Below, piece by piece: positions 5,598 through 55,226 of a stretch of DNA of 64,000 bases. The number at the start of each line of letters is the position of its first letter. Position 1 is the first letter of the stretch. The stretch lies in the IMG/VR virus record IMGVR_UViG_3300033485_000001, positions 114,540-178,539 of that record. One strand, given 5' to 3'. Below the pieces are notes generated by a model, which was given only the letters and a program-made list of their open reading frames with translations, searched no databases and was not told the origin of the DNA. The stretch is from a virus. Position numbers and translations under genes: made by a program.

Positions 5598-5640
5598 AAA
5601 GGGGAGGCGTCTCAGATGTTGAGACGCCTCCCTTCACTTT
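5596..5640. terminator. Probable bidirectional intrinsic terminator
   Basis: 13-bp perfect stem GGGAGGCGTCTCA (5602-5614)/TGAGACGCCTCCC (5620-5632). A-run on the left, T-rich on the right, between convergent genes. Confidence 0.8.
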
Positions 5641-5662
5641 CCACAGCCATCGACTCCGGACG

Positions 5663-5758
5663 CTACTCGTCGTCGTCGGAATCGATCAGCCACTCCTCCG
5701 TGCTTCCTGTGACCACTGCGACGTACGCAGACAGGAACGCCAGGAGGAAAAGTCTCAT
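5663..5758 (-). CDS. 31-aa peptide, hydrophobic N-half and acidic tail (MRLFLLAFLSAYVAVVTGSTEEWLIDSDDDE)
   Basis: Translated by hand; AAAGGAGG RBS just upstream; not in the ORF track because of its size. Confidence 0.65.
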   Translation of the reverse strand: MRLFLLAFLSAYVAVVTGSTEEWLIDSDDDE

Positions 5759-5792
5759 CCAACCTCCTTTCCGTCAGACGACACGGTACCCA

Positions 5793-5888
5793 TCAGTCGG
5801 CCTCGTAGTCGCCGAGGAGATCGTCCTCGACCTCCGACTCGAAGTCCGCGAGCTCGCTGTCCTCCACCACGTCTTCCGGATCCACCAT
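5793..5888 (-). CDS. 31-aa highly acidic peptide (MVDPEDVVEDSELADFESEVEDDLLGDYEAD)
   Basis: Translated by hand; AGGAGGT RBS; downstream of a TATAAGATCATTGA promoter. Confidence 0.7.
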   Translation of the reverse strand: MVDPEDVVEDSELADFESEVEDDLLGDYEAD

Positions 5889-5922
5889 GCACCTCCTGAG
5901 CTAGGGTAAGAGTTTTCCCTAC

Positions 5923-5960
5923 TCAATGATCTTATATCTGGGATCTTGTCGTCCTTGCAC
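5923..5960 (-). promoter_or_regulatory. TATAAGATCATTGA-type promoter
   Basis: The minus strand reads GATATAAGATCATTGA; the same core occurs at 48545 and 54319, with a variant at 24042. Confidence 0.65.
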
Positions 5961-5974: not shown

Positions 5975-6042
5975 GAATGAAGCTCATGTTGACCCCCTAG
6001 AGGACTGTGATCCTCGATGATCGGGGGTTGCGGAGGCAGCAA

Positions 6043-9000
6043 GTGGCGAGACTTGACCCGGCCGAGGGGTTCGAGATCCTCAAGAGTCATGTGAAGGACG
6101 CGATCTCCAGCTCGTTCCCACAGGAAGGAGCCAAGAACGTCCTCAAGCTCGAGAGCCTGGACATCCCCGACAAGCTGAGCGTCAGCAACGTCGGAGAGCA
6201 GAAGGCCGCCAAGATGAACGGGCGCACCTGGGGCGTTCCCGTTCACGCGACGCTGGTGCTCGAAGACAAGAAGACAGGCAAGGTCCTTGACCGAAGCAAG
6301 ATCAAGATCGCCACGCTGCCCAAGGTGACCAACCGCTACTCCTACATCGTGGAGGGGTCGGAGTACCAGGTCGACAACCAGTGGCGGCTCAAGCCGGGCG
6401 TCTACACGAAGGTCCAGCAGAACGGTGAGCTGGATTCCTTCTTCAACATTCAGGGGCAGCCGCTGCATCTCGGCTTCGACCCGAAGGAGCGGTCCTTCGT
6501 GATGAAGCACGGAGGAGCGCAGCCCCCGCTGTACCCGATCATGCGGGCTCTTGGTCACAGCGACGGTGACCTCGAGAAGGCGTGGGGCAAGGACATCCTC
6601 AACGCCAACATGACCGACAGCCGGGGGAAGGTGCTGAAGGTCGACAAGCACGCCATCGCCTTCGCGAAGCGCCTGGTGCCAGAGGAGGAGATCACAACCC
6701 TCGAGAAGGCGTCGGAGGTCATCAAGCAGAAGTTCGCCGAGTCGCGTCTGCACCCTGACGTAACGAGCCGCACGCTGGGCAAGGCCATCGACAAGATCAC
6801 ACCAGAGGCGATGCTGCGCTCGTCTCAGCGCCTTCTCGGCGTGGCTCGTGGGACCGAGAAGCCTGACGTCCGGGACTCACTCATGTTCAAGGAGTTCCTC
6901 AGCACCGAGGACTTCATTGGGGAGCGGATCAAGCAGAGCAGCCCGGTCATCCAGCGTCGCATCGGGAACAACATCGACAGGCGGGACAAGATCCGTGACA
7001 TCGTGGGCATGGATGTCTTCCAGCGACCCGTCAAGGAGTTCTTCTCCAAGGTGTCCCTGGCCTCGACCCCAGAGCAGACCAACCCCCTCAAGATGATCTC
7101 GGGTCAGCTTCGTACAACGATCGCTGGGGAGGGTGGCGTCAAGGACGCGAACAGGATCACAGAGGATGCGAAGCTGGTGGACCCAAGCCACTTCGGCGTT
7201 CTCGATCCACTGCACACACCGGAGAGCGTGAAGACCGGCGTGAACCTCCAGCTCGCCCTGGGGACCAGGAAGGTGGGGACTCGCGTAGAGATCCCGCTCA
7301 TCCACGCCAGGACCGGGAAGGTGACCTACCTGGATCCTGGGAAGATCAACGACGCCATGGTGGCGCTTCCCGATTCGGTGAAACGGGTGAACGGGAAGTT
7401 CTCTCCGAAGGAAGGATCCACGGTCCTGGTGAGCGGTCCTGGAAACGAGCTGATGCGCGTTCCCATGAAGGATGTCGAGTACGTCGTGCCGCGCTCGAGC
7501 CAGATGTTCTCGATCGCCACGAACATGGTCCCCTTCATCTCCAGCGATTCGCCGAACCGAGCAACCATGGCCGGCAGGCACATGGAGCAGGCCATCCCGC
7601 TCGTGAACCCAGAGGCCCCGCTGGTGCAGTCTGTCCTCGGCAAGAAGAGCTTCGACGAGCTCGTTGGTTCCTACGCCTCCCATGCGGCGCCGGCGGACGG
7701 GACCGTCCTGCGTGTCGAGAAGGACGCCATCCACATCAAGGGCTCCGACAAGAAGACCCACATCGTCCACACCTACGATCACTACCCGACCAACGACAAG
7801 AAGGGGATGATCCACAGCAACTCACTCGTGAAGGCCGGCGACAAGGTCACGAAGGGTCAGGTCGTAGCCGACACCAACTTCACCAAGAACGGCGTCTACG
7901 CCCCAGGCAAGAACCTCCAGGTCGCCTACATGCCGTGGCGGGGGTACAACTTCGAGGACGGCGTGGTGATCAGTGAGACTGCTGCGCAGAAGCTCACGAG
8001 CGAGCACCTCCACAAGAAGGGCCTGTCCACGAAGGAGGCGCAGCTTCTGGGGACGAAGAAGTACCAGGCGTACTACCAGGACCGTCTCAACAAGGAGCAG
8101 GCCGCCAAGCTGGATCCTGACGGAGTGGTCAAGCCTGGGATGAGGGTGAAGCCAGGAGACACGCTGATCGCAGCTCTGGCGGAGCAGCAGCTCACCACCG
8201 AGGAGCAGAAGCTGAAGCTCTTGCACAAGAGCTTGGTGAGGCCGTTCAAGGACAAGGCAATCACATGGGACGAGGACGTGGAGGGGGAGGTCATCGAGGT
8301 CAACAAGAGGGGGACCAGGGTCGACGTCCACGTCAAGACGGCGGAGCCGATGGACGTGGGGGACAAGCTGGTGGGTCGTCACGGAAACAAAGGAATCGTG
8401 ACGATGATCCTACCAGACCACGAGATGCCGAAGACGAAGGACGGGAAACCGATCGAGGTGATCATGAACCCCATCGGGACCCCCGGCCGTATGAACATTG
8501 GACAGGTCCTCGAGACGGCTGCCGCAAAGATCGCGCAGAAGACTGGTCAGCCCTTCAAGGTCACCAACTTCGAGGTGGAGAACAACCTCGAGTTCGTCGA
8601 GAACGAGCTCAAGAAGCACGGGCTGACCGACAAGGAATCGATCATCGATCCGAAGACGGGCAGGGAGATCCCGAACATCCAGGTTGGCCCGCAGTACATC
8701 CTGAAGATGGAACACCAGGTCGGGAAGAAGATGGCTGCCCGATCACGGGATTCTTACGACCGCAACCTGGTGCCGAAGGGTGGCGGTCCACACGGAGCTC
8801 AGGCCCTCGGCTCGCTCGGCATCTACTCCATGCTGGCCCACGGTGCCAAGGCCAACATCCGGGAGATGCAGACCTACAAGAGCGACAAGTCGCAGGGTGG
8901 TGACAACGACGAGCTCTGGAGTGCGCTCCAGGCTGGTGAGATGCTGCCCCCGCCCAGGACCACCTTCGCCTACAACAAGTTCAACTCCTACCTGAAGGCG

Positions 9001-12000
9001 CTCGGAGTGAACACTGAGAAGGACGGCAACAGCCTGAACCTCGTGCCGCTCACGGACAAGGACGTCCTCTCGATGTCCAACGGCGAGCTCAAGGACGCGG
9101 GCCGCGTCGTGAAGATGAGGACGCTCCAGCCGGAGAAGAACGGCCTCTTCGATCCGAAGATCACAGGCGGGCATGACGGGACCAACTGGTCCCACATCAA
9201 GCTCACCTCACCCATGCCGAACCCCCTGTTCGAGAAAGCCATCATGAGCGTGGCTGGGATCCGTGGTCCGCAGTTCGACAAGATCATAGGTGGCACGGCG
9301 GGTGTGACGAAGGACGGCGCCATCGTCGAGCAGACGGGTGTGAAGGGGGCGACCTACGGACCCGCAGCGATCGATCACTTGCTGGCGAAGGTGGACATCA
9401 AGAAGGACCTCGCGGTGGAGGAGGCACGGATCCAAGGGCTCAAGGGCCAGCTTCAGAACGAGTCGAGGCGCAAGATCAAGTACCTCCGTGCGTTGGACAA
9501 GCTGGGCATGAAGCCGACTGACGCCTACATGATGAAGCACGTTCCGATCCTGCCTCCGAACATGCGGCCCATCGCCGTGCTCGATGACGGGAGCCTCCAG
9601 ACCGATGACCTGAACGAGATCTACAAGCAGCTCGCGATCGTCAACAAGAAGCACGGCGAGTTTCCGGCCAACGCGCCGCAGTCGCTCAAGGCCCCGCTCC
9701 AGGAGGACATCTACGATCACCTGAAGTCCCTCACTGGGCTCGGTGGCACCCTCAACAGGAAGCACCCTGGCATCCTCGACGTCCTCTCAGGACGTGAGGG
9801 ACCGAAGACCAGCTTCGCACAGGACGTTCTGATCAAGCGCAAGCAGGACCTCACCATGAGGTCCACCATCGTCCCGGAGCCGTCCCTCTCGCTGGACGAG
9901 GCGGAGATCCCGAGGAAGGCTGCGAAGGAGATGTACAAGCCCTTCCTGGTCCGGGAGCTGCGCCGCACAGCCGGAGTCACCCCGCTTGCCGCCAAGAAGA
10001 TGATCGACGAGGACGACCCGCTCGCGAACAAGGCGCTGGATCGTGTGGTTCAGGAGCGCCCTGTGCTGCTGAAGCGCGACCCGGTCCTCCACAAGTACGG
10101 CATCCAGGCGTTCAAGCCACGGCTCGTCGAGGGGAAGGCCATCAAGATCCACCCCCTCGTGTGCTCCGGCTTCAACGCCGACTTCGATGGCGACACCATG
10201 AGCGCCTACGTTCCGATCACGGCGGAGGCCGTGAAGGAGGCGGAGCAGATGTTCCCCTCGCGGAACCTCTTCTCCCCGGCCACTGGATCCGTCATGTACA
10301 CCCCCGGCCACGAAGCGCAGGTCGGCCTGTTCATGATGGCCGACGCTGGGAAGTGGACTGGTCAGCGGTTCAAGAGTCAGGCCGAGCTCGAGAGCGCGGT
10401 GAGAGCCGGGAAGGCGACTCAGAACGACGTGGTCATGGTGGGGAACGTCAAGACCACGCTCGGGAGATTGCAGATCAACAGCCACCTCCCAAAGGATCTC
10501 CAGGGAGGGAAACTCCTCACCGATCTGAACTACAGGTTCACGAAGAAGGAACAGGAGAAGCTCTTCAACGGCATGGTCAAGGTCGACCGCGCCGCGTATC
10601 CGTCTTCGATCAACAAGCTGAAGGACCTCGGGAACGAGGCAGCCACGATGGGCAGCTTCAGCTTCGGCCTCGGAGACTTCAAGGTCCACAAGGACATCCG
10701 TGATCCAATCCTGCGAAGCGCGGAGGCAAAGGCGGCCAAGCTGGACCTGTCCAAGAAGGATCAGCTCAACAAGTTCATCGACATCTACGAGGGCGCGACC
10801 AACGAGATCGATGAGAAGCTGAAGCAGCGCATCGCCGACCCCAAGTTCCAGACCAACCTCGTCAAGCTCGAGGTGGCAGCTGGGATCAAGGGAAGGGGTC
10901 TGCGGCAGCTCACGGCAGCCCCAGTTCTCTTCGTAGACGGCAAGGGCGAGGTGGTCACCAGCCCCGTGAAGAAGTCCTACGCAGAGGGCCTCTCGTCAGG
11001 GGACTACTGGGCGGCGACCAGCGGCGGCAGGAAGGGTGCGATCCAGAAGGTCCAGTCGGTCAGTGAGCCGGGCTACCTGACGAAGCAGATGGCCAACAGC
11101 ACCCTCGACATGCTCGTGGCCGCCAACGACTGCGGCACCAGCCGAGGCGTGAACCTGCACGTGGACGAGCCTGATGTGATCGGCAGGTACACCGTCGCGG
11201 ACCTGAAGCTCCAGAAGGGAATCATCCCGGCGAACACCCTCGTCACGCCGGAGATCCTGAGCCGTATCAAGAACGCCAAGATCGACAAGGTCGTGGTCCG
11301 ATCTCCGATGCGCTGTGTCCACGGTAAGGGTGTCTGTGCGAAGTGCATGGGGCTCAACGAGAACGGGAAGCTCAACGATCTGGGAACCAACGTGGGCATC
11401 CTGGCCACCCAGTCCATCGGCGAGCGCGGCACGCAGCTTGCCATGAAGGCGTTCCACTCAGGCGGCGTCTACGAGGGCAGGGAAGCAGCCACGAAGTCCA
11501 TTGCAGCGGGTGGCCTCGACCGAGCCGGCAACATCCTGAACCTCCCGCAGAAGCTCAAGGGATCAGCGATCCTCTCGACCACTGTCGGTCGGGTGAACAA
11601 GATCGAGAAGGATCCCGCCGGCGGTGTTCGAGTCTCCATCGGGGACAAGGAGCACTACGTCCCCGCCGACCGAGCGATGCTCGACAAGGTTCGCGTGGGG
11701 TACCAGGTCAAGAAGGGCGATCCGATTACCAACGGCCCCGTCAACCCACACGAGCTGCTCCCGCTCACCAACATGAGCAAGGTGCAGGGTCACCTGGCGG
11801 GGGAACTCCATTCCATCTACGGGCAGTACGGCATCAAGCGGAGGCACTCCGAGCTCATGGTGCGGGCGCTCTCGAACGTGACCAAGGTCGAGAACCCCGG
11901 CGGCAACCCAGACCTCCTGCCCGGAGACTTCACGAGCACGAGTCAGGTCTACGAGTGGAACAAGCAGAACCCGAAGACCAAGCCCGTGGTTCACACCCCA

Positions 12001-12204
12001 GTTCTGCGCGGTGTGAAGACGATCCCCCTCGACATCCAAGAGGACTGGATGGCTCGATTGAACCACGAGCACTTGAAGAGTACGCTTGTGGAGGCGGCAC
12101 AGCAGGGATGGCAAAGCAACCTCCACGGCATGCACCCGATCCCGCCCCTCATGCATGGGGCCGAGTTCGGAAAGGGTACCAAGGACAAGCCCTGGGCCTA
12201 CTGA
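6043..12204 (+). CDS. rpoBC: Fused beta/beta-prime multisubunit (two-barrel) DNA-directed RNA polymerase
   Basis: Colinear beta motifs (EQTNPL, DPSHFG, YMPWRGYNFEDG, GDKLVGRHGNKG, NPIGTPGRMNIGQ) then beta-prime motifs (LPPNMRP, FNADFDGD at 10171-10194, GGRKG...GYLTK, QSIGERGTQL). Likely start is GTG 6043 (GGAGG at 6032); the ORF is open from 6007. Confidence 0.95.
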   Translation: MARLDPAEGFEILKSHVKDAISSSFPQEGAKNVLKLESLDIPDKLSVSNVGEQKAAKMNGRTWGVPVHATLVLEDKKTGKVLDRSKIKIATLPKVTNRYSYIVEGSEYQVDNQWRLKPGVYTKVQQNGELDSFFNIQGQPLHLGFDPKERSFVMKHGGAQPPLYPIMRALGHSDGDLEKAWGKDILNANMTDSRGKVLKVDKHAIAFAKRLVPEEEITTLEKASEVIKQKFAESRLHPDVTSRTLGKAIDKITPEAMLRSSQRLLGVARGTEKPDVRDSLMFKEFLSTEDFIGERIKQSSPVIQRRIGNNIDRRDKIRDIVGMDVFQRPVKEFFSKVSLASTPEQTNPLKMISGQLRTTIAGEGGVKDANRITEDAKLVDPSHFGVLDPLHTPESVKTGVNLQLALGTRKVGTRVEIPLIHARTGKVTYLDPGKINDAMVALPDSVKRVNGKFSPKEGSTVLVSGPGNELMRVPMKDVEYVVPRSSQMFSIATNMVPFISSDSPNRATMAGRHMEQAIPLVNPEAPLVQSVLGKKSFDELVGSYASHAAPADGTVLRVEKDAIHIKGSDKKTHIVHTYDHYPTNDKKGMIHSNSLVKAGDKVTKGQVVADTNFTKNGVYAPGKNLQVAYMPWRGYNFEDGVVISETAAQKLTSEHLHKKGLSTKEAQLLGTKKYQAYYQDRLNKEQAAKLDPDGVVKPGMRVKPGDTLIAALAEQQLTTEEQKLKLLHKSLVRPFKDKAITWDEDVEGEVIEVNKRGTRVDVHVKTAEPMDVGDKLVGRHGNKGIVTMILPDHEMPKTKDGKPIEVIMNPIGTPGRMNIGQVLETAAAKIAQKTGQPFKVTNFEVENNLEFVENELKKHGLTDKESIIDPKTGREIPNIQVGPQYILKMEHQVGKKMAARSRDSYDRNLVPKGGGPHGAQALGSLGIYSMLAHGAKANIREMQTYKSDKSQGGDNDELWSALQAGEMLPPPRTTFAYNKFNSYLKALGVNTEKDGNSLNLVPLTDKDVLSMSNGELKDAGRVVKMRTLQPEKNGLFDPKITGGHDGTNWSHIKLTSPMPNPLFEKAIMSVAGIRGPQFDKIIGGTAGVTKDGAIVEQTGVKGATYGPAAIDHLLAKVDIKKDLAVEEARIQGLKGQLQNESRRKIKYLRALDKLGMKPTDAYMMKHVPILPPNMRPIAVLDDGSLQTDDLNEIYKQLAIVNKKHGEFPANAPQSLKAPLQEDIYDHLKSLTGLGGTLNRKHPGILDVLSGREGPKTSFAQDVLIKRKQDLTMRSTIVPEPSLSLDEAEIPRKAAKEMYKPFLVRELRRTAGVTPLAAKKMIDEDDPLANKALDRVVQERPVLLKRDPVLHKYGIQAFKPRLVEGKAIKIHPLVCSGFNADFDGDTMSAYVPITAEAVKEAEQMFPSRNLFSPATGSVMYTPGHEAQVGLFMMADAGKWTGQRFKSQAELESAVRAGKATQNDVVMVGNVKTTLGRLQINSHLPKDLQGGKLLTDLNYRFTKKEQEKLFNGMVKVDRAAYPSSINKLKDLGNEAATMGSFSFGLGDFKVHKDIRDPILRSAEAKAAKLDLSKKDQLNKFIDIYEGATNEIDEKLKQRIADPKFQTNLVKLEVAAGIKGRGLRQLTAAPVLFVDGKGEVVTSPVKKSYAEGLSSGDYWAATSGGRKGAIQKVQSVSEPGYLTKQMANSTLDMLVAANDCGTSRGVNLHVDEPDVIGRYTVADLKLQKGIIPANTLVTPEILSRIKNAKIDKVVVRSPMRCVHGKGVCAKCMGLNENGKLNDLGTNVGILATQSIGERGTQLAMKAFHSGGVYEGREAATKSIAAGGLDRAGNILNLPQKLKGSAILSTTVGRVNKIEKDPAGGVRVSIGDKEHYVPADRAMLDKVRVGYQVKKGDPITNGPVNPHELLPLTNMSKVQGHLAGELHSIYGQYGIKRRHSELMVRALSNVTKVENPGGNPDLLPGDFTSTSQVYEWNKQNPKTKPVVHTPVLRGVKTIPLDIQEDWMARLNHEHLKSTLVEAAQQGWQSNLHGMHPIPPLMHGAEFGKGTKDKPWAY

Positions 12205-22966: not shown

Positions 22967-22995
22967 GAAAAACGACATGGCCTGAAGATTTTCTG

Positions 22996-23024
22996 TTGAC
23001 AGGTCAGGTAGGCGGACCTATAAC
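22996..23024 (+). promoter_or_regulatory. Near-consensus sigma70 promoter
   Basis: TTGACA (22996-23001)-17 nt-TATAAC (23019-23024). Confidence 0.85.
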
Positions 23025-23030
23025 AGACAC

Positions 23031-23424
23031 TGCCTCGCGAGATCGAGGAGGCTCCGAAAGGATCCGAATCGCTCTCCGAACCGGGGAGGCCCCCGGAACT
23101 GCTGGAGGAGGATCATCCCCAACGATCCCAGCAGTCGGCCCTGGAGCGGAAGGGAAACCTTCCAGGGATGGTCGGCTCCAGGGAAGCTCGAGATGGGGCA
23201 GCGTGCGGGTAACACCGTTTCGTGCGTCCCATCGAAGAGTGCGGTGACGGATCGGATGTCCGGGCTGGACTCGAAAGAGGAAGGCGGCTCTGATCAGGGG
23301 AGGCGGCGTCGAGCTCGAACCCGTAGGCGCCAGGCCGGTGGGTAACACCATCGGTGGGGAAACCCGGATCGAGACGCGATGCGACGAAGGCCCGGTGGCG
23401 AAAGCTGTCGGGCCTTTCGTCTAT
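23031..23424 (+). ncRNA. Putative structured ncRNA of about 390 nt, unknown class
   Basis: Own promoter, 5'/3' closing helix, at least eight stems, five GAAA tetraloops, two GUAACA loops, terminal 17-bp hairpin, no credible ORF. Confidence 0.7.
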
Positions 23425-23440
23425 CTGGACCATGACCATG

Positions 23441-23488
23441 TAAGAAGATCACCCAAGGGGTGACCATCCCGACCGGCGGCGGGGTTGG
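23441..23488 (-). terminator. Twin-hairpin terminator (CCGCCG-loop hairpin, then GGTCACCC/GGGTGATC and TTCTTA)
   Basis: Nearly the same arrangement as 48068-48110. Confidence 0.7.
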
Positions 23489-23504
23489 TAGGTGCCGGTT
23501 GCGG

Positions 23505-23999
23505 CTAGCGGCGGGCGCTCTCGCGGTCGCCCTTGCGGTCGCCCTTGCGGGGCTTCTCGTCGTCCTCGTCCTCGTCGTCCTTCTTGGACTTGGACTTCTT
23601 CTTGCGCTCGGGGGTTCCGGCGATCTCCTCGCGGATCGCCTGGACCAGCTCTCGCGCGTCGAGCTGTCCGGCGTCCTTGATGGCGTCGCCGACTTCCTCG
23701 AGCGCCTCGCCGAACTCCTCGACGAGCTCCTCGGCGCCGTTCGCGATCGCGCACTCGAGGTCGTGCGCGTCCTCGGCGGCGTCGGCGGCCCCGAGGATCG
23801 TCCCGGTGATGCCGCCGACGACGAGCGCGGTGGTCTGGTCGACGGCGAAGAGCTGGCTCGCGACGAACCCGCCGCCGACCCCCACGCCGCCTCCCTTGAT
23901 CCCTCCCCGAATGACCTTCTCGGAGTGTCGCTTGACGCTGCCCCACCGGGTCGGCTTCTCGATCTGGATCCCGAGTCTCTTCTTCTTCCCCTTGGACAT
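23505..23999 (-). CDS. Protein with basic N-terminus, glycine-zipper helices and acidic C-terminal domain
   Basis: AGGAGGT RBS; own promoter and terminator; very high GC3. Confidence 0.75.
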   Translation of the reverse strand: MSKGKKKRLGIQIEKPTRWGSVKRHSEKVIRGGIKGGGVGVGGGFVASQLFAVDQTTALVVGGITGTILGAADAAEDAHDLECAIANGAEELVEEFGEALEEVGDAIKDAGQLDARELVQAIREEIAGTPERKKKSKSKKDDEDEDDEKPRKGDRKGDRESARR

Positions 24000-48067: not shown

Positions 48068-48110
48068 TAAGAAGATCACCCGAAGGTGATCGTACCCGTC
48101 GGCGGCGGGT
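48068..48110 (-). terminator. Twin-hairpin terminator (CCGCCG-loop hairpin, then GATCACC-UUCG-GGTGATC and TTCTTA)
   Basis: C(UUCG)G tetraloop on the minus strand; parallels 23441-23488. Confidence 0.8.
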
Positions 48111-48134
48111 GTTCTTCAATGGTGGGAGCCGAGG

Positions 48135-51269: not shown

Positions 51270-51992
51270 ATGAGTCACCCGGCAGAAGGGACGGAGGGGG
51301 TCAGCAAGGCTGACGCTCTCAAGGAGAAGCTGGCTGGAATCAAGGGCGCAGGCGGCAACGGCCAGTCGGCTCCCGCAGTCCCGGCCAACGGAAGCGGCGC
51401 CAAGGCCGCTCCGGCACCCGCGAAGAAGCGGAGCGCCGAGAAGACCCCGGCCAAGACCCCGGTGAAGGCCGAGGCCAAGTCGCCGGCCAAGAAGGAGCCG
51501 GCGCGCAAGGCGGCGAAGGCCCCCGCGAAGGAGCCCGCGCCCCGCAAGGCGGCGAAGGCTCAGACCGGCCTCCGGACGATGGACCGTGACAAGGAAGGGG
51601 ACGGACTGCGCCCCCTCGAGCGGGACATCATGAAGGTCGTGAAGGCCAAGCGCGGCAAGCCGATCTCGATCCGTGACATCGCCATCGCCATCCACGGCGA
51701 GGCGAAGGTCAAGTCGGCCGACGAGGGCGAGACCAAGGACAACGTGCTCGTCCGCACGGTCCGCAACGGCATCCGCAAGCCGCGCGAGTACGGCATGCTG
51801 AAGCTGTGGACCGAGACCGGCGACTCCAGCGCCAAGAACGGCTTCGTGGTCCTCGGCGACGGGACCCCGCCTGCCGGTGCGGCCAAGAAGGCGTCCAAGG
51901 CGGCCAAGGACAAGGCCGCCAACAAGACGCCGAAGACGCCGGCGAAGAAGGCCGAGTCCAAGGGCGGGAAGAAGCCCGCCAAGAAGTCCTAG
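51270..51992 (+). CDS. Linker-histone-like protein: K/A/P-rich tails flanking a winged-helix-like core
   Basis: PAKK/KAAK repeats at both ends; core LRPLERDIMKVV...ISIRDIA...VRNGIRKPREYGML. Confidence 0.75.
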   Translation: MSHPAEGTEGVSKADALKEKLAGIKGAGGNGQSAPAVPANGSGAKAAPAPAKKRSAEKTPAKTPVKAEAKSPAKKEPARKAAKAPAKEPAPRKAAKAQTGLRTMDRDKEGDGLRPLERDIMKVVKAKRGKPISIRDIAIAIHGEAKVKSADEGETKDNVLVRTVRNGIRKPREYGMLKLWTETGDSSAKNGFVVLGDGTPPAGAAKKASKAAKDKAANKTPKTPAKKAESKGGKKPAKKS

Positions 51993-52924: not shown

Positions 52925-53240
52925 CCTGAAGTACGCCCGCTTCATCAAGGAGGGCCAGGACATCGGGGCCGAGCTGATCGAGCAGGCGAAGAAGCTGATG
53001 GAGGGTGAGCCCAGGGAGGCGGCGAAGATTCTGGTCTCGGCCTGGGTCATCCTGAACGGCGTCGCAGCTGTCTGCCACAACAAGGAGATGTTCACGCAGG
53101 CTGCGAAGGTGGAAACGCTGCGACAGAAGATCAGGTTCATGGGTGGTGAGCTGGCGATGGCGGGTTACTCTCTGATCACGGATGTGCCGGACAGCCAGGT
53201 AGCTCTCGTCGTCACCCCGAAGGAGCCAACGAAGAGGTGA
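52911..53240 (+). CDS. Hypothetical protein
   Basis: GAGGAG RBS; typical codon usage. Confidence 0.65.
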   Translation: MAPVDLKYARFIKEGQDIGAELIEQAKKLMEGEPREAAKILVSAWVILNGVAAVCHNKEMFTQAAKVETLRQKIRFMGGELAMAGYSLITDVPDSQVALVVTPKEPTKR

Positions 53241-53245
53241 GGGAG

Positions 53246-53932
53246 ATGGCAAGCAGCGAAGAGAAGAAGAAGGCGTTGGGAGCGTGGGCGGAGGCAGTCC
53301 AGGAGGGAGCGAACGAGTTCCTCGAGCTCGCCCTGGAGATGAAGGAAGGAGGGAAGGACGGCTACGAGTGGCCGTACCTGCTCGGGCTGTTCATCGATCA
53401 GCTGGCCAAGCACATCAGGACCGGGAGCTGCGCGCCCGACATGACCAAGGCGCAGAAGACGCACATGGCCGTGGCAGTGTCGGCCACCCACGATGGCTAC
53501 ACCAAGCAGCGCAACGTGGTCGACGCGAAGCTGTTCGACCAGGCCGAGAGCATGTTCGTGGTGTTCTCGGAGCTCCTCGACATCTGCCCCGTCAAGCTCC
53601 CAGAGATCAAGAAGCAGAAGGAACAGCCCAAGGAGGAGCAGCTCGAGCTCCCCGTGGAGCACGATGTGGTGATCGTGCTGCCCAAGGGCACGCCCGAGGA
53701 GAAGGTGAAGCGCATCATGGACAAGGCCACCGAGCTGATGGCCTCCGAGGGCAGCGGCCTTCTCCTCCACGTCAGCGTCGGCAACGACGAGTCGACCCAG
53801 GTTCGGGTCCGTGCCGGCAACGAGGAGAAGTACTCCGCCGTCATCGACGAGGTCCTGCGCGGGCACATCCCCGTGCCCGAGAAGTCCACCTCCCCCATCG
53901 ATGTCCAAGACGTCCCGCCGCAGAACAACTGA
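53246..53932 (+). CDS. Hypothetical protein
   Basis: GAGGTGAGGG RBS; typical codon usage. Confidence 0.7.
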   Translation: MASSEEKKKALGAWAEAVQEGANEFLELALEMKEGGKDGYEWPYLLGLFIDQLAKHIRTGSCAPDMTKAQKTHMAVAVSATHDGYTKQRNVVDAKLFDQAESMFVVFSELLDICPVKLPEIKKQKEQPKEEQLELPVEHDVVIVLPKGTPEEKVKRIMDKATELMASEGSGLLLHVSVGNDESTQVRVRAGNEEKYSAVIDEVLRGHIPVPEKSTSPIDVQDVPPQNN

Positions 53933-53946
53933 TCATTACCAGCTAA

Positions 53947-54320
53947 CATGAATCTCCGAGTTGACCAGTCCTTTCGGCTGTGGCCTGGTCCACAGCGTAC
54001 TGGGTCTGATCAACTCGGAGATTCGACCTTCTTCCTGTGGTGCCGGCATCGACCTTCGTTTTTCCTGGTGTCGATCGTCTCCCGTCCAGGTCGGGAGAAC
54101 GCACCAGTCCACCAGTTCTTTACCCCTCTGGTGGGAGGGGGCGGGGTATTCACTCCTGGCCAAGGAGCGCCCCAGCCCTCGATCTGTCCCATCGCCATCC
54201 ACGAGGTCGAGGACGCCTCGTGAAAGCCTGGGATGCGTATTGCGTGATCGCCCTCCCAGTAGGCGATCCCAAGCTGATCGACGGAGCCATTGATGAGGAT
54301 AGCTTGGTCTCCCCTGGCTC
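53947..54320 (-). ncRNA. Putative structured ncRNA of about 375 nt, unknown class
   Basis: Starts at the predicted +1 of a conserved promoter; 5' pseudoknot, at least nine perfect 5-7 bp stems, 15-bp terminal stem (53950-53964/54010-54024); no credible ORF. Confidence 0.7.
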
Positions 54321-54359
54321 AATGATCTTATATACAGGGCCTCCTGTGCTTTTTCGCTT
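54319..54359 (-). promoter_or_regulatory. Bipartite promoter AAGCGAAA-N17-TATATAAGATCATTG
   Basis: Conserved sequence and spacing. Confidence 0.78.
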
Positions 54360-54364
54360 ATCTG

Positions 54365-54373
54365 GGTATAAGA
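54365..54373 (+). promoter_or_regulatory. TATAAG-core promoter, divergent
   Basis: GGTATAAGA about 45 nt upstream of GGAGGT-ATG 54418. Confidence 0.55.
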
Positions 54374-54417
54374 CAGGCAGAAGGCCAGGTCCGTTTGATC
54401 TGGTTATGGAGGTGCAG

Positions 54418-54837
54418 ATGAGAGGGTGTCCGTGTTGCGAGGGGCGGGAGCCTGACAAGCAGCCCGACATGACGATCGAGGAGATCGAGGAGGGCCTGGG
54501 GTACCAGACCAGCGAGGAGTACCAGGAGACCCAGAAGAAGTGGCTGGAGTCGAGGCCCCCGACGGTGAGGGCGGTGGCCGAGAAGTTCCTGGCCCCGCTT
54601 TACAGGGTCAAGGAGGGGAACCCCTACAACTACACGCCGGCGGGATCCATTGTGACCCTCTACAAGATCGTGGAGAAGGGGTGCAAGAACGGCCACATCG
54701 AGGCGGAGCCTTGGTTCCACGTGCTTCGCAACCCGGCCGGCTACGCGCACCTCGTCACGCCCTTCGACGAGGAGTGGCTCGAGCCGATCACGCTGGATGA
54801 GCTCAAGGAGATCGTGAGGAAGGAGGAGACGAACTGA
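54418..54837 (+). CDS. Hypothetical protein
   Basis: GGAGGT RBS; the upstream in-frame extension to 54037 looks spurious. Confidence 0.7.
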   Translation: MRGCPCCEGREPDKQPDMTIEEIEEGLGYQTSEEYQETQKKWLESRPPTVRAVAEKFLAPLYRVKEGNPYNYTPAGSIVTLYKIVEKGCKNGHIEAEPWFHVLRNPAGYAHLVTPFDEEWLEPITLDELKEIVRKEETN

Positions 54838-55226
54838 TGACGGAGACGCGGTTCTTCAGGGATGGGCCGGACTACGTGAACCAGATCATCATGCCGGTCT
54901 GCGACTCGAGCATCAAGCCCGAGTACCTGCTCCAGACCTTCGTGAGCGCGTGCCTGAACGCAGCTCAGTGGTGGCTGGACAAGGCGGCCGACACTCCCAT
55001 CGTGGACGAGAACGGCATCGTCAACGATCTGATCGAAGAGCTGGCCAACGCCGAGAGGTACATGGCGTTCGTCACCAGCTTGCTCTACTACCTGCCGCTG
55101 GATCCCGATGCCCCCAACGCCAGGACCAGCGTGATCCGTGAGCTGGCGGACTGCATGATCGCAGCCGATGAGCTCTACGCCATGATGGAAGAGGCCAAGG
55201 AGGCAATCGAGAAGGAGAAGCTCTGA
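54837..55226 (+). CDS. Hypothetical helical protein
   Basis: Coupled start/stop; AGGAGG RBS. Confidence 0.7.
   Translation: MTETRFFRDGPDYVNQIIMPVCDSSIKPEYLLQTFVSACLNAAQWWLDKAADTPIVDENGIVNDLIEELANAERYMAFVTSLLYYLPLDPDAPNARTSVIRELADCMIAADELYAMMEEAKEAIEKEKL

Follow-up and report, generated by a model that had tools for sequence, protein, structure and literature searches.

What does an uncultured wetland phage encode in a 485-bp gap flanked by two plus-strand genes, where the opposite strand carries a promoter and no recognizable protein-coding gene? The DNA analysed (hereafter the window, 64,000 nucleotides (nt), positions 114,540 to 178,539) is the last 64 kb of the 178,539-bp IMG/VR virus record IMGVR_UViG_3300033485_000001, which has 62% G+C and is judged complete. 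The region in question, about 375-380 nt, lies at 53940..54320 on the minus strand (window coordinates are used throughout), and an earlier note, made from the sequence alone, had proposed that it specifies an unclassified phage RNA of about 375 nt. Our results support a stand-alone, minus-strand non-coding RNA (ncRNA) of that size: no Rfam family matches it, close relatives differ by insertions and deletions (indels), conservation among relatives breaks at the predicted transcription start (+1), two metatranscriptomic libraries carry contigs of this stretch alone, and its helices carry compensatory changes. As an explanation of the whole, an accessory, compactly folded, stand-alone ncRNA that acts in trans by binding is the best that we can offer, and we hold it with somewhat better than even confidence.

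The RNA gene appears to have its own promoter (54321..54357, minus strand), composed of GCGAAA (54357-54352), a 17-nt spacer and the 14-mer TATATAAGATCATT (54334-54321). The 178.5-kb genome has six copies of this 14-mer, all of them on the minus strand, and four of these fall in the window against 0.00 expected from shuffles; a shorter core, TATAAGATC, has 14 genome copies, which are intergenic and on both strands. Five of the six strict copies are followed 15-40 nt further on by a ribosome-binding site (RBS) and start codon, the copy at 54334-54321 being the exception. Two of these sister copies, in the first half of the genome, precede real genes on the minus strand, others precede a 160-amino-acid (aa) gene at 24 kb and a 123-aa gene at 48.5 kb, and the copy at 5.9 kb precedes two 31-codon open reading frames (ORFs) and a canonical terminator. 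In three relatives that carry the RNA (L061, L060 and L044, described below) the promoter is kept through the base preceding +1 and the sequences diverge thereafter; the break falls exactly at G54320, the base following TATATAAGATCATT, which the earlier note had singled out as +1. A six-fold motif, conservation that ends at +1 and an edge of the RNA contigs 11-13 nt inside +1 together point to a promoter of its own and a defined start for this gene, and we infer that transcription begins at G54320, on the minus strand, from a recurrent TATAAG-type TATATAAGATCATT promoter. As an aside, the unit at 5.9 kb (window 5598-5940, minus strand; promoter copy at 5938-5925) immediately precedes the fused RNA polymerase gene of this phage, in antisense orientation to it; each of its two ORFs has a strong RBS, one product is extremely acidic (Asp/Glu-rich) and the other is hydrophobic in its N-terminal half and acidic in its tail, and the unit ends in a canonical GC-hairpin and T5 terminator.

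Features of a protein-coding gene are lacking in this region. No RBS and start codon were found behind the promoter, unlike in the five sister copies, just as had been claimed at the outset. A 128-codon open frame on the minus strand (54322-53936) opens at the predicted +1; it fails the signature of G+C at third codon positions (GC3) that real genes of this genome pass, it has no Pfam match, and it has no counterpart in the distant relative L044. We regard the region as non-coding because close relatives are separated by three 1-nt indels, as is the case for L061, which is 97% identical over 243 nt; L060 has a 4-nt deletion and loses the start codon of a small ORF, the only AUG behind a Shine–Dalgarno-like motif. 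A tblastx comparison between two versions of the RNA yielded no significant conserved peptide.

The RNA also falls outside the known families. Searches with Infernal and Rfam 15 (4227 models, including GOLLD, ROOL, OLE, raiA, 6S, pRNA, transfer-messenger RNA (tmRNA), riboswitches and self-cleaving ribozymes) gave 0 matches at gathering thresholds in the whole window, and no known family fits this RNA. Allowing expectation values (E) up to 10, the interval 53800-54500 gave four chance-level matches of 15-18 bits against thresholds of 40-70, three of them to microRNA or cis-element models on the plus strand and one to a microRNA model on the minus strand, while Rfam searches of relatives L060 and L044 returned nothing relevant and ARAGORN found 0 transfer RNA (tRNA) or tmRNA genes in the window. 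Nor is there similarity to the other ncRNA candidate of the window, as the earlier note had also stated (the best blastn-short match is 9 nt). That candidate, at 22967-23504 on the minus strand, consists of about 530 nt that lack a gene-like ORF, downstream of the 160-aa gene (23505-23999).

Relatives were gathered by promoter pattern, neighbouring proteins and exact-protein look-up, and four distinct versions of the locus emerged: that of this phage (also found in the JGI contig L059), that of L061 and L062 (the type also seen in sequencing run X4), that of L060, and that of L044. The last belongs to a phage that was also assembled as L049 and L063; its flanking proteins share only 45% and 38% identity with those of our phage, and its version of the RNA is 440 nt long with a fold z of -5.8. 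Comparison of these versions divides the RNA into two parts. A conserved 3′ module (53940..54173, minus strand) has 89% identity to L060 and 97% to L061, whereas the 5′ half is unalignable, and the module boundary at 54173 is also visible in run X4. The 5′ module of our phage (type A, 54174..54320, minus strand) is replaced by type B in L060 and L061 and by type C in L044; types B and C are unrelated in sequence to type A and likewise structured. As a whole the minus strand from 54325 to 53940 folds at -176.1 kcal/mol, compared with -141.9 +/- 5.9 for dinucleotide shuffles (z -5.8, with 0 of 100 shuffles as good).

The earlier note had called for covariation with homologues, and compensatory change is seen in the terminal hairpin, in a pseudoknot and in the type B module. 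The terminal hairpin (53950..54024, minus strand) has, from the outside in, a 19-bp outer stem, CC/GG, an internal loop, the inner stem GCUGUGG/CCACAGC and the loop ACCAGG (53989-53984). Across five copies from four variants 93% of the cells pair and 14 of the 24 pairs have changed on both sides, a degree of covariation that 0 of 500 shuffles reach. Its internal loop places CAGUAC (54002-53997) opposite CGAAA (53976-53972), and the AGUA/GAA letters are invariant in all five copies. Flanked by helices, AGUA/GAA is the sequence signature of the bulged-G/loop-E module, and in this respect the RNA resembles the sarcin-ricin-type modules of ribosomal RNA; the likeness here is one of sequence signature only, with no ribosomal RNA similarity beyond a few letters. 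A covariance model of the terminal hairpin has this locus as its sole match in the 178-kb genome and two tandem matches in L044; because no second genome copy is found, the hairpin is not the general terminator of the phage.

Several side observations touch this hairpin. In L044 it occurs twice in tandem (1898-2085, equivalent to G001 7729-7912), the second loop holding CCUGG and not the complement CUCAGG/CCAGG. The RNA-less relative L054 has a plain long hairpin (798-843) at the same intergenic position upstream of a 141-aa gene, with a weak, 24-bit match to the terminal-hairpin model on the opposite strand. The tail that follows the hairpin in our phage, ATTCATGTTAGCT, only loosely resembles the endings of cassettes at 23441-23500 and 48068-48130 (minus strand), where a small hairpin with a CCGCCG loop is followed by a GGTCACC/GGTGATC hairpin and then TTCTTA; this ending, shared by two one-gene antisense cassettes, looks like a phage-typical terminator.

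Within the same 3′ module a conserved H-type pseudoknot (54109..54140, minus strand) has the same geometry in L044. Its stem S1 pairs CCCCU (54140-54136) with AGGGG (54127-54123), its stem S2 pairs CCACCAG (54134-54128) with CUGGUGG (54115-54109), L1 is C54135, there is no L2, and L3 is the A-rich UAAAGAA (54122-54116). A generic pattern for such a pseudoknot has roughly one match per 15 kb on each strand of this genome; here it is accompanied by four compensated pairs, two in S1 and two in S2: L044 has CUCCG/CGGAG in S1 (two compensatory pairs) and CCACCAU/AUGGUGG in S2 (one), and L060 has CCGCCAG/CUGGCGG in S2 (one). An alternative pairing proposed by RNAalifold, CUGGUG with CACCAG, was rejected, being broken in L060, whereas pseudoknot S2 is compensated there. 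Next to the pseudoknot, the stem P-b (54107-02 with 54070-65; 54065..54107, minus strand) encloses the hairpin P-c, and both are invariant in this phage, L061 and L060. P-c pairs UCCCG with CGGGA (54096-92 with 54084-80) around a 7-nt loop, ACCUGGA (54091-54085), and in L044 the terminal hairpin is likewise preceded, at a comparable spacing of about 53-55 nt, by a hairpin whose loop is ACCUGAG. The CCUGG of the P-c loop is complementary to the CCAGG of the terminal-hairpin loop, and the equivalents in L044 are CCUGAG and CUCAGG. Between P-b and the terminal hairpin the linker holds a GC-rich palindrome, UGCCGGCA (54041..54048, minus strand), and a palindrome is found there in every variant (UGCCGGCA, UGCCGGCA and GCCGGC, with CUGGCGCCAG in L044).

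The 5′ half is less constant. All ten stems listed previously, scattered over the whole RNA, proved by script to be perfect Watson–Crick helices (6, 7, 7, 7, 5, 7, 6, 6, 7 and 15 bp). The H-type pseudoknot that the earlier note had placed at +1 survives only in part: both of its stems exist and are topologically compatible, and yet it is not conserved, its second stem existing in the version of this phage only and having no counterpart in the three other variants. Each of the four variants instead begins, within its first 45 nt, with a hairpin at +1 of -11 to -16 kcal/mol, built from differing stem sequences; in our phage this 5′-terminal hairpin (54284..54320, minus strand) has the closing stem GAGCCA/UGGCUC. 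The conserved 5′ feature is a plain terminal hairpin rather than a pseudoknot at +1. Between L060 and L061 the type B module keeps 43 predicted pairs, with two compensatory and five wobble-compatible changes and none broken. Three further ideas were discarded: a sponge for CsrA (GGA occurs 14 times against 8.9 +/- 2.5 expected, which is too weak), a CCWGG cluster (six sites in 400 nt, at about the 99th percentile, yet CCWGG is frequent throughout the genome, at 5.1 per kb), and a pairing of GAAGGUCGA repeats, the first of which is not conserved in L060.

Is the RNA made? A look-up of sequencing runs places the stretch in wetland and freshwater metagenomes, with a small share in two libraries labelled metatranscriptomic. 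When contigs of the libraries were aligned to the 1.7-kb stretch 53200-54900, an independent DNA run (X2) covered all of it, and each metatranscriptomic library contributed a single contig, at 54021-54309 in X5 and at 54027-54307 in X6, 100% identical, wholly inside the RNA and with no strand given. Their depths are 5.4 and 10.5, and both flanking genes have zero depth. Because DNA carry-over would not pick the same 285 nt twice, we read these contigs as RNA, which accumulates in nature well above the neighbouring genes. On one side the contigs fall 11-13 nt short of the predicted +1, and on the other they stop about 75 nt short of the end, at the foot of the terminal hairpin. As to strand, the supported helices contain G-U pairs and switches from G-U to A-U or G-C, and the minus strand is favoured because these would be A-C mismatches on the plus strand.

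What might such an RNA do? Our best guess, from the pattern of conservation, is a stable, compact, trans-acting RNA that would bind a protein or itself, a role favoured because the conserved features are of a kind that gives an RNA a compact tertiary structure and displays fixed loops. The pseudoknot and the loop–loop contact would compact the 3′ module into a nuclease-resistant body, which would present the loop-E-like motif and the other invariant loops; the RNA might then act in trans during infection as a partner or decoy for a phage or host protein, with the swappable 5′ module tuning specificity or stability. Pairing with an overlapping gene would not be its mode of action: the predicted RNA runs from 54320 to about 53940, clear of the upstream coding sequence, which ends at 53932, and of the downstream one, which starts at 54418. 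Among antisense targets within the phage none is convincing, the best being a 15-nt match (E 0.054) between RNA positions 118-132, in the variable module, and 51682-51696 in a plus-strand 260-aa gene, which was dismissed as chance. The exchangeable 5′ module and the patchy distribution of the gene hint at a role in conflict.

That distribution is one in which at least seven other relatives of the downstream 139-aa gene (L051, L053, L054, L057, L072, L073 and L075) have little or no gap at this position, some of them, at 60-63% identity, nearer to our phage than L044 is. Because these seven relatives lack the RNA at the site, we consider its gene accessory and patchily distributed. In L051 the -10 element and the RNA are absent and the sequence on both sides is retained; an origin as a mobile element was considered and rejected, since no target duplication or terminal repeats are evident in that comparison. 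A profile search with the 139-aa neighbour recovered 77 relatives; of those not met before, the closest three lack the gap at this site and with it the RNA. Wider searches added little: blastn against the phage GenBank collection gave no match, the flanking proteins found nothing in IMG/VR (by pattern or tblastn), a scan of IMG/VR with the promoter 17-mer gave 40 loci, of which only two are related and both cover another part of the genome, and scans with the hairpin core and with a 20-mer of the 3′ module gave no new lineage. Three scan matches were set aside, namely L058 (chance, in a coding region), L050 (chance) and L063 (a duplicate assembly of L044). This last contig (CAZNAX010000001.1, 173,992 bp), identical to L044 along 1866 nt and the third assembly of that phage, sits inside a metagenome-assembled genome labelled uncultured Desulfatibacillum sp., which is either a binning artefact or a weak hint of the host.

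Several points weigh against a stand-alone, trans-acting RNA. Both metatranscriptomic libraries come from one study, which is also that of the source metagenome, and their listing, in which no run is firmly recorded as RNA, labels them 'RNA? (probably DNA)'; the contigs carry no strand. Among the three close variants alone the covariation of the 3′ module is not significant (one compensatory pair, with 168 of 500 shuffles as good), and the strong covariation signals rest on homology with one distant lineage, L044. The hairpin at 54024-53950 is followed by no U-tract, and the RNA contigs end at 54021-54027, before it. Because the U-tract is absent, termination at this hairpin is not assured, and read-through past it would give an RNA antisense to the upstream 231-aa gene. 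The mature RNA may also lack the terminal hairpin, the contigs stopping before it; poor priming or reverse transcription at a 3′-terminal hairpin is a possible alternative cause of that stop. Most relatives do without the RNA, so that its gene is evidently dispensable, and the trans-acting binding role is itself only deduced.

Of the competing explanations, the one that survives best, though we think it unlikely, is that the minus-strand promoter opposes read-through from the upstream operon, the RNA pairing in cis with the 3′ extension of that operon, so that the two plus-strand units would be separated or the upstream mRNA destabilized and the fold would serve mainly for stability. The arrangement invites this idea: the RNA sits between two plus-strand genes, converging on the upstream one (53237..53932, 231 aa) and diverging from the downstream one (54418..54837, 139 aa, start at 54418, RBS GGAGG), neither of which has a family match. 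Downstream of the 231-aa gene no plus-strand T-run terminator precedes 54333-54348, so that a read-through transcript would be fully complementary to the RNA, and the same class of promoter drives other antisense one-gene cassettes within plus-strand blocks. However, plain antisense needs no conserved pseudoknot, no covarying loop–loop complement and no invariant loop-E-like loop, the transcribed region overlaps neither coding sequence, and close relatives do without an RNA at this junction.

It is also conceivable, at rather longer odds, that the RNA is an RNA-only homo-oligomer, in which intermolecular pairing of the palindromic linker and of the CCUGG/CCAGG loops would form a dimer or larger assembly. 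There is precedent in GOLLD, ROOL and OLE, which form homo-oligomers, GOLLD and ROOL being orphan phage-associated RNAs (PMC12286853). A GC-rich palindrome occupies the same linker in every variant, including that of L044, the two hairpin loops are mutually complementary with the match kept in changed letters in L044, and the second terminal hairpin of L044 carries the loop CCUGG instead. On the other hand, GC-rich sequence often contains palindromes of 6-8 nt (we estimate a chance of roughly 0.1-0.4 per linker), sequence alone cannot tell intra- from intermolecular pairing, and no similarity to the GOLLD or ROOL models was found. A bolder, similarly improbable proposal combines this with the conflict-related reading: the RNA would be the founding member of a new class of 'ornate' phage RNAs, with a core of pseudoknot and loop-E, an RNA-only multimer assembled through the palindrome and the CCUGG/CCAGG loops, and the exchangeable 5′ module outside as a variable surface in an arms race, for example as a decoy for a host defence or RNA-binding protein.

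More doubtful still is a riboswitch-like leader, in which the 3′ module would sense a ligand or protein and the loop–loop contact would set whether transcription stops or runs on antisense through the upstream genes. An internal hairpin loop does complement the loop of a terminal, terminator-positioned hairpin that has no strong U-tract, a layout similar to the kissing-loop control of cobalamin riboswitches. Yet the next ~3 kb downstream contain no minus-strand gene, an Rfam search at E up to 10 gave no riboswitch match, and the metatranscriptome contigs do not reach past the hairpin.

We find it very improbable that the stable species is instead a plus-strand fragment, the remnant of a structured 3′ untranslated region of the upstream operon, with the minus-strand promoter incidental. 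The plus strand of the region does fold well (z -4.6), and strandless contigs cannot speak to the matter; but the minus strand folds better, the G-U changes in the supported helices would become A-C mismatches, and the contig edge (54307-54309) lies within 11-13 nt of the minus-strand +1, where the conservation among relatives breaks. Finally, a protein product, whether from the 128-codon frame that spans the whole region on the minus strand or from a smaller internal ORF, can practically be dismissed, being already contradicted by the missing RBS, the GC3 failure, the lack of a Pfam match, the absence of the frame in L044, its disruption by the 1-nt indels of L061 and the 4-nt deletion of L060, and the empty tblastx comparison.

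Returning to the compact, trans-acting RNA that we prefer, its nearest kind are the orphan 'ornate' phage RNAs, a loosely defined group in which it would be a new family, smaller and with a distinct core. Like GOLLD (RF02032), ROOL (RF03087), OLE and raiA, it is a large multi-domain phage ncRNA with pseudoknot and loop–loop elements and no known function, and, as read from the two libraries, it accumulates strongly; its palindrome or complementary loops could also permit self-association in the manner of GOLLD, ROOL and OLE. Unlike these RNAs it matches none of their models, even at E up to 10. At ~375 nt it is smaller than GOLLD and ROOL, and it further differs from the group in having its own phage-type promoter and a very narrow distribution, and in lying outside any tRNA island (the window has no tRNAs). 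The packaging RNA (pRNA) of phi29 is likewise a phage-encoded, promoter-driven, stable structured RNA, and the function of the present RNA, like that of pRNA, would hinge on loop–loop pairing. However, pRNA, an essential RNA of about 120-174 nt, is confined to phi29-like phages, whose genomes are protein-primed, whereas the RNA described here is dispensable, being absent from close relatives, belongs to a large terminase-packaging phage and has no match to the Rfam pRNA models. As in the cis-antisense RNAs OOP of phage lambda and sar of P22, it opposes the surrounding genes and has its own promoter and a terminal hairpin; OOP and sar are under 100 nt and overlap their target gene, in contrast to an RNA of ~375 nt that overlaps no coding sequence and has conserved tertiary-type motifs.

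The surroundings of the gene are themselves sparsely annotated, with Pfam and PHROGs searches of nine neighbouring proteins returning no informative family. A plus-strand promoter-like site, GGGTATAAGAC (54364..54374), identified by a core-motif search and inspection of the sequence, diverges from the RNA promoter and would serve the downstream 139-aa gene; it is kept as the consensus CTGGGTATAAGATCG in the RNA-less relative L051. Between these back-to-back promoters the palindrome CTTATACCCAGATAAG (54357-54372) consists of two opposed TATAAG-like hexamers and is present in all relatives, including L051; an operator is one possibility, a mere pair of -10 elements another. Elsewhere in the window (6007-12204) lies the gene for a fused beta-beta′ RNA polymerase of 2065 aa (Rpb2_6 at 4e-65, plus Rpb1 domains), which also has a sub-threshold Peptidase_M23 match at residues 561-628 (24.6 bits, cut-off 28.7). 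Because a six-frame search of the phage genome with Sigma70_r2 gave no match, a phage sigma factor is unconfirmed. A metagenomic lineage of Caudovirales with a multisubunit RNA polymerase has been described (PMC7481178), which our phage resembles in that polymerase.

Few parts of phage genomes are as poorly understood as large structured RNAs of no known function, and few such RNAs come with evidence of expression or are small enough for direct structural work. The RNA described here is ~375 nt long with a conserved core of ~235 nt, and in it three recognizable elements of tertiary type come together, namely the H-type pseudoknot with its A-rich loop, the loop–loop complement, which covaries, and the module that resembles loop E. 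It seems to be abundant in environmental RNA, has a defined promoter and a natural swap of the 5′ module, and is a tractable candidate for cryo-electron microscopy, chemical probing and pull-downs. Accessory, conflict-related functions typically show such a patchy distribution among relatives, and the RNA belongs to a little-studied phage lineage that encodes its own fused beta-beta′ RNA polymerase.

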